43,905 bases of DNA, from the NCBI GenBank assembly GCA_036405075.1, contig DASWYG010000025.1:1-43905 (forward strand), written 5' to 3'. Under the pieces are notes generated by a model. It was not told where the DNA came from and ran no database searches. It saw nothing but the letters and a program-made list of their open reading frames with translations. The translations under genes were made by a program, and so were the position numbers. Shown here piece after piece: positions 21,294-37,457 of the stretch. Position 1 is the stretch's first letter. The number at the start of each line of letters is the position of its first letter. This DNA is from Bacteroidia bacterium. Lineage in GTDB: Bacteria > Bacteroidota > Bacteroidia > NS11-12g > UBA955.

Positions 21294-22901
21294 TTATTTA
21301 ATTATTGGTTGTGGTTCTTGTATATTTTTAGCCTTCACATACTCAGAGAGGCTTATGTTTAATTGGTCAAGTTTCTTGATTAAAATTTCATTATCCGGTA
21401 ACTGGTTGAGCCATTCACCGAAGTATAATTTCTTATTGAAATCCTCGAAATTGGAGATATTGGATTTCGCCTCACCTATTGTCAAATGGACAAACGGCTC
21501 AAGCCTCATCAATTTGAGGTGCTTATTGAGTTCTATTGCATTATTTTGGTACTTTGAATAGTAATACTCGGCCAGTAATTCATCAAGTACGGATGTTGGA
21601 GATCCTTTAGACCTTGCCTCTTGATATTTTTTCCAAATCACATCAGGTCCCTCGATCAGGTATCTTCTACCTAAATTGATTGAACAGCCTTTATAGGTGT
21701 TTTCGAAATAGAACTTACCTGTTTTATCTGTTACGAACTTTTCAATCGATTCAGCCCACTTACTTAACCTTTCTAAACGGTCATTCATTGGCTGCATATC
21801 TGAGACAATCTCAGTTGCAGTCTTTTGACCATCGGTACTCAATCCATTGGTTTTGGCTTCATCTGTTTTGCCCCAATATGTTGAATGCATAGAAGATTCA
21901 AGTTCCTTGAGTTCTTCTGACATTTTGGTCCATCCTTCGATATCGGGTGTAGAATATCCGGCAATGTCGGGACTGATCGTTGGTTGACCCTCAAGTGGAA
22001 TTGGTAGCGTAATAATTTGAGATGAATCTTGAGTAACACTTTTACCGGTTCCGTTGCATGTTTTACAGTCTTCACCATGCTTATGTCCTGAACCTTTACA
22101 ATCGGAGCAAACAGTTTGGTACTGCCATGCTTTCGGAAACCCGTGTTTGAGTTTAAAGATAGTTTTTACCGATCTTTCTCTTAAGAACTGATCAGCAATT
22201 TCAATTACTTCTGCATCGGGTGAAACAAATGTCTCAGATGTTTTTGATTTTATATCCGAGATGACAATTGCCGGGACTTTTCCAAAATAGTTCTTAAATG
22301 TTTTATCTTGAATTACTGTGACGGTTTCTTCGCCATCGTATCGAACAAGATAGTCGAATGCATCGTCAACAACTCTAAACTGATCCTTTTCATCTGTTCT
22401 GAATACAACATACTCAACGTCTCTACCTTTAAGTTGGTAGTCAAAGATGACTGAAATTGACTTGTAAGTAGGATAAGTCTCATTGTCGCCAACCTCCATA
22501 AACACCAAGCCCATTGGATCAGTGTGAAAGTATTGTTTTGCAAATACTTCAACCCAGTTGCGCACTGAATATCCGTTGTAAATATCATTCAGTATCTCGA
22601 TGAGTTGCTTTTGTGAACTAGCACCTATATCATAAAAAGTTGAACCACCTTTGGCAGTGAATATCTTATCTTCAGGTCTATGAAGTCGTGCAAATATGTC
22701 AACGTTTGATTGAGCATATTTCTTTCTAAGTTCAAGTTGTTTTTTATTTTCAAGCCCTGATACTTCACTCAATAAATCATCCGAACCTTTACCGGTAATG
22801 TGTTGAGTTAGCTTCTTAGATTCGCTCTGAGCAGCATTAATCATGTCCTCATTAGGATTGTTTTTGATAATGCGCTTGATGTCGTCGAGACTTAGAATCA
22901 T
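21294..22901 (-). CDS. Portal protein candidate carrying a DnaJ-type CxxCxGxG zinc-finger insertion
   Basis: About 535 aa and the first structural gene after terL. The track start at 22910 is TTG, and the ATG at 22901 gives MILSLDD. The motif CSDCKGSGHKHGEDCKTCNGTG is encoded at 22041..22109. Confidence 0.5.
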   Translation of the reverse strand: MILSLDDIKRIIKNNPNEDMINAAQSESKKLTQHITGKGSDDLLSEVSGLENKKQLELRKKYAQSNVDIFARLHRPEDKIFTAKGGSTFYDIGASSQKQLIEILNDIYNGYSVRNWVEVFAKQYFHTDPMGLVFMEVGDNETYPTYKSISVIFDYQLKGRDVEYVVFRTDEKDQFRVVDDAFDYLVRYDGEETVTVIQDKTFKNYFGKVPAIVISDIKSKTSETFVSPDAEVIEIADQFLRERSVKTIFKLKHGFPKAWQYQTVCSDCKGSGHKHGEDCKTCNGTGKSVTQDSSQIITLPIPLEGQPTISPDIAGYSTPDIEGWTKMSEELKELESSMHSTYWGKTDEAKTNGLSTDGQKTATEIVSDMQPMNDRLERLSKWAESIEKFVTDKTGKFYFENTYKGCSINLGRRYLIEGPDVIWKKYQEARSKGSPTSVLDELLAEYYYSKYQNNAIELNKHLKLMRLEPFVHLTIGEAKSNISNFEDFNKKLYFGEWLNQLPDNEILIKKLDQLNISLSEYVKAKNIQEPQPIIK

Positions 22902-22907
22902 TAAGTA

Positions 22908-22953
22908 CAAATTTAGATTGATGAAATGGGTTCAATCGGACGAGATGCGAACG
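22908..22953 (-). promoter_or_regulatory. Copy P3 of the bipartite promoter-like element, upstream of the portal gene
   Basis: Minus strand: CGTTCGCATCTCGTCCG-N21-TAAATTTG. The octamer matches the Bacteroidetes -7 consensus TAnnTTTG and ends 6 nt before the ATG at 22901. Confidence 0.55.
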
Positions 22954-22978
22954 AAAAAAGCCACCTTGTGAGTGGCTT
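22953..22978 (-). terminator. Rho-independent terminator ending the tRNA island
   Basis: Minus strand: AGCCAC-TCACAAG-GTGGCT followed by TTTTTCG. Confidence 0.6.
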
Positions 22979-23232
22979 TAAACTTTTAATAAAACAAATA
23001 ATTCCAAAGTATCTACCGAGAAGCACGATTTCAAACAAGGCCGTCTTTCCGGCTGCCATATCCATCTGCAATTGATGAACAAAACTCATTAATACTATCA
23101 ATGAGGGGGCTTAAATAACTACGGGGCTAACACTGTGTACTTTAGTGATACTTCTCAAATGTACATCAATCAGAGTTTCGAACCTCAGATCAGTTTCATT
23201 TAAGGATTTCGCCCCTTTCTTAAAAATTGTTG

Positions 23233-23303
23233 AGCTGAGTAATGGAATCGAACCATTTTAAACAGGGTTGCAATCTGTGACCTAGCCACTCGGACAACTC
23301 AGC
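23233..23303 (-). tRNA. tRNA-Cys(GCA): tRNA-Cys (anticodon GCA), non-canonical
   Basis: 71 nt: GCTGAGT TG TCCG AGTGGCT AGGT C ACAGA TTGCAAC CCTGT TTAA AATGG TTCGATT CCATT ACTCAGC T. Supporting features are a perfect 7-bp acceptor stem, a perfect T arm with loop TTCGATT, U33 and A37, and the U73 discriminator that is a Cys identity element. Weak points are a D stem with only two G-C pairs and an A31.C39 mismatch. CCA is not encoded. Confidence 0.7.
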
Positions 23304-23327
23304 ATTTAGAGGGGAATATTTCGCCCC

Positions 23328-23504
23328 TCACCCCCACATGTTGCGGCCAGTAGGTATCGGCTGCATGTCTTTCCATGCCGTCAAGCTAAACGTGGAGACT
23401 GCATGAAACGAACATGCAAATGCCTCATGCTTTACTCTCAGGGCTTCTATTGCATATACACCCGTATTGATTACCGACATCTCGGCATTGTCCGACATCT
23501 CCAT
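23328..23504 (-). CDS. Possible 58-codon ORF with outlier composition; the same stretch could instead be a structured leader RNA
   Basis: Hand translation gives MEMSDNAEMSVINTGVYAIEALRVKHEAFACSFHAVSTFSLTAWKDMQPIPTGRNMWG. The sequence is visibly more G+C-rich than its neighbours and is packed with GCATG/CATGC palindromes and hairpins. Confidence 0.3.
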   Translation of the reverse strand: MEMSDNAEMSVINTGVYAIEALRVKHEAFACSFHAVSTFSLTAWKDMQPIPTGRNMWG

Positions 23505-23572
23505 TTACCCGGCTCTTCACCGGGTATCTTTTTTAATCATTTATCGGTCAAATAAAGAACGTAAAAGGGACA

Positions 23573-23618
23573 CAAATATTTATATATAATCTGAATCTAA
23601 AACGACGAGATGCAGACA
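23573..23618 (-). promoter_or_regulatory. Copy P2 of the bipartite promoter-like element, upstream of the tRNA island
   Basis: Minus strand: TGTCTGCATCTCGTCGT-N21-AATATTTG. It begins immediately after the terL stop codon. Confidence 0.5.
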
Positions 23619-25094
23619 TTAATAATTTGCAGGAGTTGAACCAAGATTATATTCAAGTCTTAAATCAAACCATTCACGCATCATGAACGGGTCACCGAAG
23701 TCAGGCGAACGGCCATTTAATATTGCTTTCTGCTCTTCCTTTGAATTGATTTGCATTTTGCCATCCATGTCTACCTTATCTCGTTTGATGGCTCTTAAAT
23801 CAGCTTTAATGAGGTCACGAATATCGACAACCTCAGATCCTTTTTTGATTTTAGTACCTCGAATACCGTTGATCTCGACCGTTTCGGGTGTAATGGTCCA
23901 AAGCGCAGAACCTTCATTCACTTTCTTAGATGCCCGGTAATAGCACTGTGTTTTGAGATTCTTGTAATTCTCTTTGATTCTTGTCTCAGGATCTTTCATC
24001 GGTTGCGCACCACCGTGAAATCCTTGATACCCTCCGAGCTTCACTGTGCTGTCCCCAACTCCATCTTGATCGACTAAGACATTTGACTTAGGAATAATGA
24101 ATCGTTTGCGTTCGGCTTCAATGATGTTTACAATGTCGTATGCTTCAGTTTTAAAATAGACAATGGTTTTGACTACTTGCCAACCTGACCAAACAAGCAC
24201 AACTGTATAATCTCGGCCAAATCTTGACGCATCGCAAGTGATGTATTTTTTGCCCGGATCTGCATAGTTTGAAAACAGATCATTGCACTTGTAATAATCA
24301 AATAAACCAAGTCCATCAACTCTAACTTTCCAGTTACCATCAAGAAGCTGCGCCCTGAGTGCTTCATCTTGAGCCATTAAGTTGGCCAAGTATTCAGGAT
24401 TGACTTCAAGTAGTTTTTTGTTGTGATAAATAGAACCTGGAATAAAGGTCATTGACTTAACAAGATCATTCACATCAACATCATTTGCTTTTGCGATTGA
24501 AGCAATGTCCGGAACTTGATCAATGACTTCTTGCTTGGTGTTTCCCCAAATGTAATTGTCTTGATACATGATGAAGTATCTGAGCTTACCACATCTTTCT
24601 TTTGTTGGAAACCCGTCTTCACCAATGAACCACTTAATGAACTCAGCAACCCAACTATCAGGGTCAGGGTTACATGTGCATCGAACATACGGCTTAACGC
24701 CGCATGATGAACGATTACGAGATAACAAATAAAAGAATTGCTTTTTAGTGAAATGTGTAACCTCGTCGAATCCAATGAATGGAATTTGTGATCCTTGCCA
24801 GTTGAGAATATCTTTCTCATATTCTAAGTGCGAAAATTTGAGTTTTGAGTTCTTGAATATCCATTCAGATGTGCTGCCTTTAGGTGAACCTCCGGCAAAT
24901 GGATAAAGCGTTGTTGAAGTGTCCCACAAACCACCCTCAGATTTAATTTGTGGCATTGTACGTCTGAATATTACACCGCCCCAGTTCTCTACATTCTTAT
25001 GTCTCAAAAACTCCATCAGCAATGCAAATGTCTTTCCTGATCCTGCGGCACCGCCACCAATGACAATATCAGCAGGTGAACCCATAAAGTCCAT
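23619..25094 (-). CDS. terL: Terminase large subunit
   Basis: Walker A motif GGGAAGSGKT near the N-terminus, a DE-type Walker B (IGFDEVTH), a C-terminal nuclease-like half, and a size of 491 aa. Confidence 0.85.
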   Translation of the reverse strand: MDFMGSPADIVIGGGAAGSGKTFALLMEFLRHKNVENWGGVIFRRTMPQIKSEGGLWDTSTTLYPFAGGSPKGSTSEWIFKNSKLKFSHLEYEKDILNWQGSQIPFIGFDEVTHFTKKQFFYLLSRNRSSCGVKPYVRCTCNPDPDSWVAEFIKWFIGEDGFPTKERCGKLRYFIMYQDNYIWGNTKQEVIDQVPDIASIAKANDVDVNDLVKSMTFIPGSIYHNKKLLEVNPEYLANLMAQDEALRAQLLDGNWKVRVDGLGLFDYYKCNDLFSNYADPGKKYITCDASRFGRDYTVVLVWSGWQVVKTIVYFKTEAYDIVNIIEAERKRFIIPKSNVLVDQDGVGDSTVKLGGYQGFHGGAQPMKDPETRIKENYKNLKTQCYYRASKKVNEGSALWTITPETVEINGIRGTKIKKGSEVVDIRDLIKADLRAIKRDKVDMDGKMQINSKEEQKAILNGRSPDFGDPFMMREWFDLRLEYNLGSTPANY

Positions 25095-30412: not shown

Positions 30413-30470
30413 TTTAGCAAAAATATACTACCTATCAAGCGCATGAGTGCTGAGTTGATTGGCGTTTACG

Positions 30471-30516
30471 CAAAAATCGTTTTATTAAATAGGTCTATTC
30501 AGACGAGTTGCGAACG
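30471..30516 (-). promoter_or_regulatory. Copy P1 of the bipartite promoter-like element, upstream of the tail-fibre/packaging block
   Basis: Minus strand: CGTTCGCAACTCGTCTG-N21-GATTTTTG. It matches P3 at 15 of 17 positions in the upstream box and has identical spacing. Confidence 0.5.
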
Positions 30517-37091: not shown

Positions 37092-37367
37092 TTATTGCAG
37101 TTGATTTTTTATATACCTATTAACTATCCACCCTTTTTCTCTTGCTTCATTTGGATTGAGTTCGATGTATTGATGACACCTGAAACACACTGCCATAAAG
37201 AAGTCGATATTTGTAAGTAAATTTCCGATCCTACCTGCTTTGTGATGAACTTGAGTGGATTTATTTCCACATCGTTCGCATTTAGGTTTTAGAGTCAAGA
37301 ATTCAAGTCTTAGTTTTGAATATTCTCGGTTTTGGGCTGCACGTTTCTTGCTTACTTTTCGTATCAT
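37092..37367 (-). CDS. HNH/NinG-like zinc-binding nuclease candidate (91 aa)
   Basis: CERCG...VHHKAGR...VCFRCHQYIE, that is two Cys pairs plus His residues, with a basic N-terminus. Confidence 0.5.
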   Translation of the reverse strand: MIRKVSKKRAAQNREYSKLRLEFLTLKPKCERCGNKSTQVHHKAGRIGNLLTNIDFFMAVCFRCHQYIELNPNEAREKGWIVNRYIKNQLQ

Positions 37368-37457
37368 TTTTGTTGAATTGGTGAAAGAATGCCAGTCTCT
37401 TCCCGGCTGTCTCGTCTCATTTAATTCATCATTTAGCTAATACCCTGCTTCGATGTT

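Follow-up and report, generated by a model that had tools for sequence, protein, structure and literature searches.

A tRNA gene on a phage genome is ordinary in itself. The tRNA region of phage T4 also harbors two small stable RNAs, and T5 and other phages carry tRNA arrays. Lambdoid phages have morons, which are accessory cargo with promoter and terminator of its own between conserved genes, and the lambda-type boxB (nut) hairpins are characterized by a 5-bp stem and a GAAAA or GAAGA purine loop, the N/boxB pairs being lineage-specific. Theta ribozymes, which are minimal ribozymes like that of hepatitis delta virus (HDV), are found next to tRNAs in gut phages of Bacteroidota (Kienbeck et al. 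2024, PMC10879173). The PeSL of T4-type phages are, as outlined in Arbiol et al. 2010 (PMC2839356), mobile regulatory cassettes, and positions 2056–2063 of 23S ribosomal RNA (rRNA) are, in the outline given in PMC3661153, the A2058 site of macrolides, Erm and TLR13. The subject of the present analysis is a non-coding island between the genes for the large terminase subunit (terL) and the portal protein in a 43,905-nucleotide (nt) stretch of DNA from a Bacteroidia bacterium (GenBank assembly GCA_036405075.1, contig DASWYG010000025.1, positions 1–43,905), the whole of which is referred to below as the window. We consider it reasonably probable that the island is an accessory non-coding expression cassette in a hypervariable terL/portal cargo slot of a Bacteroidota-type phage, with the putative mechanism given further below. 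The tRNA island itself is of a known kind; a hairpin motif in it is apparently a widespread RNA element of phages that has not been described.

The terL/portal gap extends from 22902 to 23618 (717 nt) and is without a credible gene. It is the longest gap not covered by a minus-strand open reading frame (ORF) of at least 60 amino acids, and all long ORFs of the window are on the minus strand. The first-pass annotation, which was made from the letters alone, had called it the only long ORF-free stretch; the longest it is, the only one it is not, since four further, shorter gaps (150–390 nt) are present at 30413, 31111, 32217 and 37368. The gap was rightly described as richer in G+C than its flanks (0.475–0.495 at 23200–23500 versus about 0.38 in the surroundings) and as containing on the minus strand a tRNA, hairpins and an intrinsic terminator. 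In relatives of this phage the terL/portal junction has the following content:

L055-57, TerL 80% identical: tRNA-Met(CAT) in a 441-nt island
L058, TerL 77% identical: tRNA-Met(CAT) in a 353-nt island
L060 (3287..3874), TerL 69% identical: two small ORFs, one of them weakly HTH_19/HTH_3-like, and a terminator; no tRNA
L061, TerL 68% identical: nothing, 85-nt gap
L005, TerL 55% identical: nothing, 36-nt gap

Because its content varies in this way among relatives, the junction is regarded as a hypervariable slot, and the idea of a cassette, put forward already in the first-pass annotation, fits the finding that the same slot holds a tRNA-Met, small ORFs or nothing. The tRNA-Met islands have the order box, G-rich leader hairpin (GNRA loop, 3–6 nt before the tRNA), tRNA, conserved GAAGAGA hairpin, terminator(s), box. 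Of these versions that of the window is the largest; its tRNA is a different one, and it has an additional segment of about 200 nt. A global MAFFT alignment of the three islands was uninformative, and the modules were compared by eye. It is conceivable that the boxes are sites of recombination. The island can also be described as a self-contained unit, as had been claimed: a promoter-like copy is followed by the cargo, an intrinsic terminator and a second promoter-like copy for the portal gene. From 5' to 3' on the minus strand the features are:

23619..25094, minus strand: gene for TerL (Pfam Terminase_6N)
23573..23613, minus strand: promoter-like element P2, directly after the terL stop codon; box GCATCTCGTC at 23604-23613, then 27 nt, then TTTG at 23573-23576
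23506..23526, minus strand: 7-bp G+C hairpin UACCCGG-UGAAGAG-CCGGGUA, terminator-like when read on the plus strand
23384..23504, minus strand: orphan G+C-rich segment, the 5' two-thirds of a 58-codon ORF, with the in-frame direct repeat GAGATGTCGG present twice
23362..23383, minus strand: motif copy 1, UGACG-GCAUG-GAAAGA-CAUGC-A (UGACGGCAUGGAAAGACAUGCA); rank 1, 15.4 bits
23309..23329, minus strand: leader hairpin GAGGGG-CGAAAUAUU-CCCCUC, ending 5 nt before the 5' end of the tRNA
23233..23303, minus strand: tRNA-Cys(GCA), found with Rfam RF00005 and ARAGORN; discriminator U73; CCA not encoded
23202..23217, minus strand: second, shorter leader hairpin AAGG-GGCGAAAU-CCUU, carrying an 11-nt direct repeat
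23156..23190, minus strand: imperfect stem containing GGUUCGAA, then a TACATTTG box (by sequence)
23039..23058 (match 23040..23053), minus strand: motif copy 2, UGGCA-GCCG-GAAAGA-CGGC-C (GCCGGAAAGACGGC); rank 4, 12.8 bits
22957..22979 (U-run to 22951), minus strand: hairpin of the intrinsic terminator, AAAGCCAC-UCACA-AGGUGGCUUU, 9 bp, then TTTTTT
22908..22948, minus strand: promoter-like element P3, box GCATCTCGTC at 22939-22948; TAAATTTG ends at 22908, 6 nt before the portal ATG
21294..22901, minus strand: portal gene, ATG at 22899-22901
30470..30515, minus strand: third promoter-like copy (box 30502-30511), one mismatch, same 27-nt spacing
37390..37412, minus strand: motif copy 3, outside the island, GAGACA-GCCGG-GAAGAGA-CUGGC-A (GAGACAGCCGGGAAGAGACUGGCA); rank 2, 14.3 bits
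37458..37507, minus strand: tRNA-like minihelix with a 7-bp acceptor-like stem GAGUGUG/CACACUC, a T-arm GAGG-UUCGAUU-CCUC and a small extra hairpin

The repeated promoter-like element noticed in the first pass is real. The element CGTTCGCAwCTCGTC-N27-TTTG has only three copies in 43.9 kb, all with identical spacing, and two of these bracket the island. Promoters for the Bacteroidota sigma-A factor have TTTG at −33 and TAnnTTTG at −7. The −7 box of P3 (TAAATTTG) fits this consensus and that of P2 (AATATTTG) matches it in 7 of 8 positions. In place of the −33 TTTG all three copies have the box GCAwCTCGTC 27 nt upstream of TTTG, which points to a phage-specific factor: the three copies are probably one phage-specific promoter class replacing the Bacteroidota −33 box, and this suggests that the class is read by a transcription factor or sigma factor encoded by the phage. 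In the relatives L055 and L058 a box is likewise duplicated at both ends of the island. L058 has a box sequence of its own, AGAATGTCCGCTAT, in two copies, and P3 is kept in L055 as CTCGTC-N27-TCAATCTAAATTTG.

The intrinsic terminator on the minus strand was borne out (hairpin 22957..22979 plus T-run); three intrinsic-terminator sites are present in the region as compared with 0.8 expected from shuffles. The claim that the island contains a small RNA of a known family did not hold. No Rfam 15 family except tRNA reaches its gathering score over the window, and in a permissive scan of the island the other matches (E = 0.2–9) were terminator look-alikes; for example, the weak MicA, isrD and Phe-leader matches at 22951..22979 are the terminator itself. 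A BLAST search of the island against 50,697 phage records gave no match, and comparison with 51 and later 335 collected loci (blastn, nhmmer) nothing significant. In three Logan contigs with identical TerL, which come from three independent read sets, the islands are base-for-base identical to that of the window; from this it follows only that the island is fixed in this genome.

The one tRNA that ARAGORN predicts for the window is a tRNA-Cys(GCA) at 23232..23303 on the minus strand, which RF00005 matches over its full length (1–71) with 43.7 bits, the gathering score being 29. The 71-nt fold is thus accepted by the predictors and the tRNA-Cys of the first-pass annotation is real. Acceptor, anticodon and T stems are regular and the anticodon loop is UUGCAAC. 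The D-stem has two Watson-Crick pairs only, flanked by 10:25 (U.U) and 13:22 (G.A), and pair 31:39 (A.C) of the anticodon stem is not Watson-Crick. The bases after U73 are CAA rather than CCA. These features make the earlier label "non-canonical" a fair one. A missing encoded CCA is common among phage and Bacteroidota tRNAs, which then require the CCA-adding enzyme. U73 is the main determinant for cysteinyl-tRNA synthetase and, together with the GCA anticodon, constitutes the Cys identity set; both are present in the tRNA from the island, from which aminoacylation with Cys is predicted.

The D-arm 20-mer of this tRNA was found in 18 Joint Genome Institute (JGI) metagenome contigs (L318-L335), all of which are dense tRNA arrays on phage-like contigs of low G+C (0.30–0.39), many of them from freshwater. 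Among 8 distinct phage tRNA-Cys from these contigs and the window both sides have changed in 10 of 21 pairs and 86% of the cells are paired, a compensatory pattern reached by none of 500 shuffles, columns 4–23 having been fixed by the search pattern used. Since the D-arm is common to phage tRNA-Cys genes with compensated stems, the non-canonical features are family traits and not signs of decay. The comparison indicates a phage-borne tRNA-Cys lineage moving between phage groups, and the gene most likely derives from the phage gene pool. The exact 36-mer of the tRNA was not found in IMG/VR. Cys makes up 1.00% of the phage codons and 0.72% of those in late genes, and a single tRNA-Cys isoacceptor reads both Cys codons; compensation of codon bias is therefore an unlikely reason for the presence of the tRNA. 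It is possible that the tRNA-Cys replaces a depleted or cleaved host tRNA.

The leader hairpin before the tRNA has counterparts in the relatives. At the leader position L055 has UGCGGGG-GAAA-CCUCGCA and L058 AGGAGGG-GCAA-CCCUCCU; the stems differ and all of them pair. The direct repeat ATTTCGCCCCT is present at 23206 and 23318 as stated previously, with a length of 11 nt rather than 10. Its GGGGCGAAAT copies, which bracket the tRNA, do lie in hairpins. They had been interpreted as traces of cassette insertion or as processing sites, and this interpretation has to be modified: because both relatives with a tRNA-Met have a leader hairpin 3–6 nt 5' of it, the repeat is regarded as a duplicated leader module, that is, two copies of the G-rich leader hairpin, and not as a target-site duplication. 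The "T-arm-like hairpin" at 23169..23190 is merely an imperfect stem containing GGTTCGAA; no tRNA model matches there at E ≤ 10, and a second tRNA 3' of the tRNA-Cys was rejected on this ground. One may speculate that the imperfect stem with GGUUCGAA is a tRNA remnant. The TACATTTG box 3' of the tRNA (23156..23163, minus strand) fits the Bacteroidota −7 consensus TAnnTTTG and, again speculatively, could provide the trailer from motif copy 2 to the terminator with its own start site.

The starting point for the hairpin motif was the hairpin after the tRNA-Met, GACAGCCGGGAAGAGACCGGCA, which is almost the sole conserved stretch of the L055 and L058 islands. The exact 20-mer is present in 11 IMG/VR contigs of unrelated phages (G+C 0.38–0.65) and in prophage-like regions of Pseudomonas, Sphingobacterium, a spirochaete metagenome-assembled genome (MAG) and a Mediterranea MAG; the remaining genome matches, inside high-G+C genes, look like chance. 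At least 190 distinct instances with covarying stems were retrieved (loci L063-L419), the consensus of the 22-nt element being cUGRCR-[GCYNG-GAAAGA or GAAGAGA-CNRGC]-A-HHH. Among the matches listed for TGACAG-N4-GAAAGA-N4-CA the two N4 are fully complementary in 99 of 121, as compared with about 2% by chance, and among those listed for TGACAG-N4-GAAGAGA-N4-CA in 25 of 125; more than 12 different stems are present among the matches listed. In a 94-sequence alignment four of the five stem pairs covary. Because these sequences were selected for pairing, the unbiased statistic is 99/121.

Conservation is not restricted to the stem. When only the hairpin GCCGGGAAAGACCGGC was fixed, 114 contexts were obtained, in which positions −5 to −1 of the 5' flank are U (101), G (110), A or G (91 and 19), C (110) and A (100); on the 3' side, A is found at +1 in 88 and there is nearly no G at +2 to +4. 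The flank is TGACA in 74 of these contexts, TGGCA in 15, TGACG in 6 and AGACA in 3. In 18 of 99 instances an ARAGORN tRNA begins 2–11 nt 3' of the motif (mode 3–5) and in none at 16–100 nt. With stricter classing (n = 115) the motif is followed by an ORF start within 70 nt in 46 cases, by a tRNA in 16 and by an intrinsic terminator within 110 nt in 10 (small-RNA-like units), the other 43 belonging to none of these classes. Adjacent long ORFs are on the strand of the motif in 56 cases and on the opposite strand in 13. By reading of the listed matches, a variable hairpin often ends 0–4 nt ahead of UGRCR. A pseudoknot between loop and downstream sequence (GAAAG with CUUUC) may form: TTTC is enriched just 3' of the motif (20 instances versus 4 expected), a loop complement of at least 4 nt only modestly so (25 versus 17 and 9 in controls).

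The motif is carried, and was never annotated, in the cultured phages mEp390 (E. coli lambdoid), ESP2949-1 (Cronobacter), Alexa (Acinetobacter), P7641 (Klebsiella), Pokken (Stenotrophomonas) and Medea1 (Pseudomonas) and in cyanophages. In mEp390 it lies downstream of a cI-like repressor, in a region that is rare and unannotated in E. coli genomes. In mEp390 (L315) and in L309, L312 and L404 more non-coding sequence is shared 3' of the motif (CACAAC..., ...GCUGUGUGUAGUCUUGGC...), so that in enterobacterial and related phages the motif may head a conserved non-coding RNA of larger size. In five other loci (L196, L219, L227, L254, L295) class II tRNA-like starts (GUCAGGUGGCGGAAUUGGUAGACGC...) are found just 3' of the motif; they diverge past the D-arm and are not called by ARAGORN, and it may be that introns or insertions interrupt tRNAs here. 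In 25 motif-bearing loci the motif is not covered by any Rfam 15 family. Neither its sequence nor a description of it was found in the searchable literature, absence there being no proof of novelty.

Several explanations of the motif were considered and rejected. The UGA cannot be read as a stop codon of a selenocysteine insertion (SECIS) or readthrough element, a long in-frame upstream ORF being present in just 10 of 118 cases. Nor is TGACA a −35 box for which the hairpin would provide the 17-nt spacer: tRNA 5' ends fall inside the would-be −10 box, the stem covaries and Bacteroidota hosts are included. A reading of the "CUGA..." beside the hairpin as part of a hammerhead, twister or pistol ribozyme was excluded by eye, since their conserved cores are lacking, and the Rfam ribozyme models match nothing.

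A covariance model (R1) built from 94 instances was run unfiltered on both strands of the window. Motif copies 1, 3 and 2 are its matches of rank 1, 2 and 4 and are all on the coding strand within two intergenic regions that make up about 1% of the search space. The stem has 5 bp in copy 1, only 4 bp (GCCG/CGGC) in copy 2, and is GCCGG/CUGGC including one G.U in the 37.4-kb copy, all three being weak matches (E = 0.1–0.4 each). Their 5' flanks, UGACG, UGGCA and AGACA, respectively, are all among the 114 unbiased contexts, and UGACG, UGGCA and the C at +1 are natural minor variants. The exact 21-mer of copy 1 was not found in IMG/VR. Copy 2 lies about 60 nt before the terminator and forms with it a unit of about 100 nt, the same layout as in the "motif plus terminator" units elsewhere; in L051, L055 and L058 the motif 3' of the tRNA occupies the syntenic position. 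The 37.4-kb copy is preceded at a distance of about 45 nt by the minihelix and followed about 20 nt on by the ORF 37092..37367. The minihelix is matched by the tRNA-Sec model with 18 bits (E = 0.2, search space 171 nt) and is not called by ARAGORN. As to the structured RNA suspected in the first pass, two further island hairpins, which had not been singled out before, belong to a widespread phage motif; this lends the idea a certain substance, though not a function. The distances from tRNA or tRNA-like element to the motif are:

L051: suppressor tRNA(UUA), motif 12-14 nt on
L055: tRNA-Met, motif 47 nt on
L058: tRNA-Met, motif 36 nt on
window, 37.4 kb: tRNA-like minihelix, motif about 45 nt on
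window, island: tRNA-Cys, motif about 175 nt on

In L051 (7870..7990; TerL 44% identical) the tRNA is ochre-suppressor-like (UUA) and is followed 12 nt on by a perfect motif copy (31.8 bits) and then a terminator, which hints at stop-codon recoding in that phage. The portal protein of the window, for its part, contains at residues ~255–280 two CxxCxGxG repeats (CSDCKGSG ... CKTCNGTG), which are a DnaJ-type zinc-finger signature, unusual for a portal protein.

With the features in this order, expression of the cassette can be envisaged as follows. Transcription would start at P2, in concert with the two other copies of the phage's own class of three promoters; membership in this class implies that the cargo would be co-expressed with the structural genes. 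The transcript would span the structured leader, the tRNA-Cys(GCA) and the trailer and end at the intrinsic terminator, and P3 would restart transcription for the portal gene and the structural operon. Host enzymes would process the precursor: RNase P would cut a few nt past the leader hairpin, and the 3' end would be trimmed and CCA added, the latter because CCA is not encoded. The product would be a phage-lineage tRNA-Cys that keeps Cys decoding available in infection. The two GAAAGA hairpins would mark the 5' side of RNA units, one standing before the tRNA and the other heading the trailer of about 100 nt up to the terminator.

With low confidence, the GAAAGA hairpin can be interpreted as a signal for processing or stability that acts in cis and is read by a conserved host factor. 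This interpretation is based on the strict register with downstream RNA units, the sense orientation, the invariant single-stranded bases and the occurrence in phages that share essentially no proteins. More generally, we tentatively suggest, while giving it somewhat less than even chances, that the 22-nt element is an undescribed and very widespread cis-acting phage RNA signal (from E. coli lambdoid phages to those of Bacteroidota, Pseudomonas and cyanobacteria), which, through a universally conserved host factor, delimits or protects tRNAs, small RNAs and mRNAs within phage transcripts at their 5' boundary, the island being one exchanged "hairpin plus RNA unit" cassette. A bolder version would be that the GGAAAGAC loop mimics the A2058 region of 23S rRNA and titrates an rRNA-directed enzyme or a defence nuclease. 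Closing G, loop and closing C of the motif spell GGAAAGAC, which is 23S rRNA 2056–2063; the GAAGAGA variant breaks the match. An arbitrary 8-mer has by our estimate a chance of about 7% to match somewhere in rRNA. The identity may be a coincidence and is to be taken as a lead rather than a finding.

Several points weigh against the view of the island as a cassette with motif-marked RNA units. The −7 box of P2 is an imperfect TAnnTTTG, and the canonical −33 TTTG (~19–21 nt upstream) is absent from both P2 and P3. The motif matches in the window are individually weak. Copy 1 is 58 nt from the tRNA instead of the usual 2–7 nt, and in this phage family the motif is found 3' of the tRNA or tRNA-like element rather than 5' of it. 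The segment of about 120 nt upstream of copy 1 is left without explanation, Cys usage is ordinary, so that the selective benefit of a tRNA-Cys is unclear, and to our knowledge there is no factor that reads the motif. It should also be noted that the use of the promoters, the sites of processing and the stability are putative throughout.

What is the G+C-rich segment, if it is not part of such a cassette? Perhaps together with motif copy 1, it could be decaying passenger DNA brought in with the tRNA-Cys, only the tRNA being functional. We regard this as unlikely, in spite of the fact that the segment is absent from the nearest relatives L055 and L058, has a G+C of 0.49 versus 0.38 and is without a homologue in any search made, and that the leader hairpin, being duplicated, and the remnant with GGUUCGAA hint at earlier rearrangement. 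The motif copy in the segment is well formed, its flank variant being a natural one, and compact phage genomes seldom retain 200 nt of junk; that the island is the same in three independent read sets also speaks against decay, if only as evidence of fixation in the genome. The opposite reading, that 23392..23503 is a functional structured RNA, a cloverleaf- or tRNA-like four-way junction released from the tRNA precursor, e.g., as decoy or regulator, appears to us rather improbable. The segment can indeed fold in this way: the minimum-free-energy fold is a four-way junction with the 7-bp closing stem UGGAGAU/GUCUCCA next to a UGCAUG-UUCGUUU-CAUGCA arm, and its stems are made up of the GCATG cores. 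The enrichment of GCATG/CATGC cores in the ORF span had been noted before and stands (about 20-fold over the window average), the count being five and not six. Motif copy 1 follows 9 nt after the junction, the motif of this phage family generally coming after tRNAs or tRNA-like elements, and the same phage has a tRNA-like minihelix and then the motif at 37.4–37.5 kb. However, no tRNA or other Rfam model matches the junction at E ≤ 10. Folding is modestly better than that of shuffles and not decisive: the z-score is −1.6 for the 112-nt junction and −2.6 when the flanking hairpins are taken in (227 nt), and values of this size speak in favor of passenger DNA. The absence of homologues from all searches made likewise counts against a structured RNA.

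A small accessory protein, co-expressed with the tRNA from P2 in the manner of a moron, would be a third possibility and is a very improbable one. The 58-codon ORF proposed in the first pass does exist (23328..23504, minus strand): it is open, its ATG is 2 nt past the hairpin, and the direct repeat CCGACATCTC within it, at 23474 and 23492, has a start-to-start spacing of 18 nt, not 19 as had been given, and is thus in frame; moreover, in the relative L060 the slot holds small ORFs. As a gene the ORF finds no support; its codon usage is atypical. Under a codon model for which 10,397 codons of the phage served as training set it scores −0.025 per codon, which is below every real 58-codon window (mean 0.273, minimum −0.010) and equal to spurious plus-strand ORFs (mean 0.013), and the G+C content at its third codon positions is 0.55 versus 0.36. 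Gene callers did not call it in the identical contigs. The 58-residue product has no match in Pfam, PHROGs or an exact-sequence look-up and no relative in back-translated scans of viral and genome contigs or in a collection of 5.8 billion proteins, and a conserved RNA motif copy overlaps the ORF, which is most likely not a gene. An antisense small RNA transcribed from part of the island on the plus strand and ending at a terminator at 23506..23534 is still less credible. The perfect 7-bp hairpin at 23506..23526 is present as described and continues on the plus strand with TCTTTTTT. Against this RNA stand the lack of a promoter-like site on the plus strand within the island, the location of every gene on the minus strand, the motif copy in the segment, which fits its family in minus orientation only, and the weaker plus-strand fold (z = −1.95). 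Despite a similar loop (UGAAGAG), the hairpin is not among the R1 matches at E ≤ 10; it would seem to be a plain hairpin that happens to be terminator-like on the opposite strand.

The accessory cassette thus remains the preferred interpretation of the island. The slot is fixed in the genome, is flanked by two genes that are among the most conserved in phages, and has its cargo swapped between duplicated promoter copies; it can thus help to understand the gain and loss of tRNAs by phages, also of those tRNAs thought to act against tRNA-targeting defences. The hairpin motif covaries strongly, its single-stranded bases are near-invariant, and it often stands 2–7 nt ahead of tRNA genes; this short RNA is present in hundreds of unrelated phages and was found neither in Rfam 15 nor in the searchable literature. 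Should it serve as a signal for processing or stability or as a decoy, phage RNA biology would have in it a general feature, and the annotation of tRNA and small-RNA units in viral metagenomes a practical landmark.

Of the known hairpins, boxB resembles the motif in being short, with 5 bp, a G-A-rich loop and a conserved single-stranded 5' flank, and in its action in cis, which for the motif is presumed. The motif differs in that the loop has 6–7 nt, that there are several copies per genome, that it is near-identical across phages of Proteobacteria, Bacteroidota, cyanobacteria and further groups and that no N-like protein was identified. With the 23S rRNA A2058 site, as outlined in PMC3661153, the identity extends over 8 nt only, and the flanks differ.

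Like the theta ribozymes, the motif is short, conserved and structured, stands in fixed register with phage tRNAs, is found also isolated in non-coding regions, is in sense orientation, and the tRNAs concerned usually are without encoded CCA. Theta ribozymes, however, abut the tRNA's 3' end and have an ACCUCC..CGUGGU double-pseudoknot core, whereas the motif is a 22-nt hairpin without this core, usually 2–7 nt 5' of the tRNA, of which self-cleavage is not expected. In the window the sequence directly after the tRNA-Cys is CAACAATTTTTAAG. A theta or HDV-like ribozyme was rejected, since a regular-expression search for the core RCC-U-CC-NCGY-GGY found it on neither strand of the window and the position relative to the tRNA differs. 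GGAAAGAC is absent from the sequence tables of PMC10879173.

The island shares with the PeSL cassettes, as far as the outline in PMC2839356 goes, that repeated promoter and stem-loop modules flank insertions, deletions and replacements. It differs from PeSL as outlined there and from morons in its repeated box, which is a phage-specific −45 to −33 element joined to a Bacteroidota-type −7 TTTG, and in its cargo, which is non-coding RNA. As to T4 and T5, we know of no report of the GAAAGA hairpin motif for either phage. With phage tRNA genes and clusters such as theirs the island has in common a phage-borne tRNA with flanking non-coding RNA, maturation by host enzymes (here presumed) and a tRNA content that varies among relatives. 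Unlike T4 and T5, the phage of the window has a single tRNA, located at the terL/portal junction of a 44-kb genome and bracketed by duplicated promoter copies.

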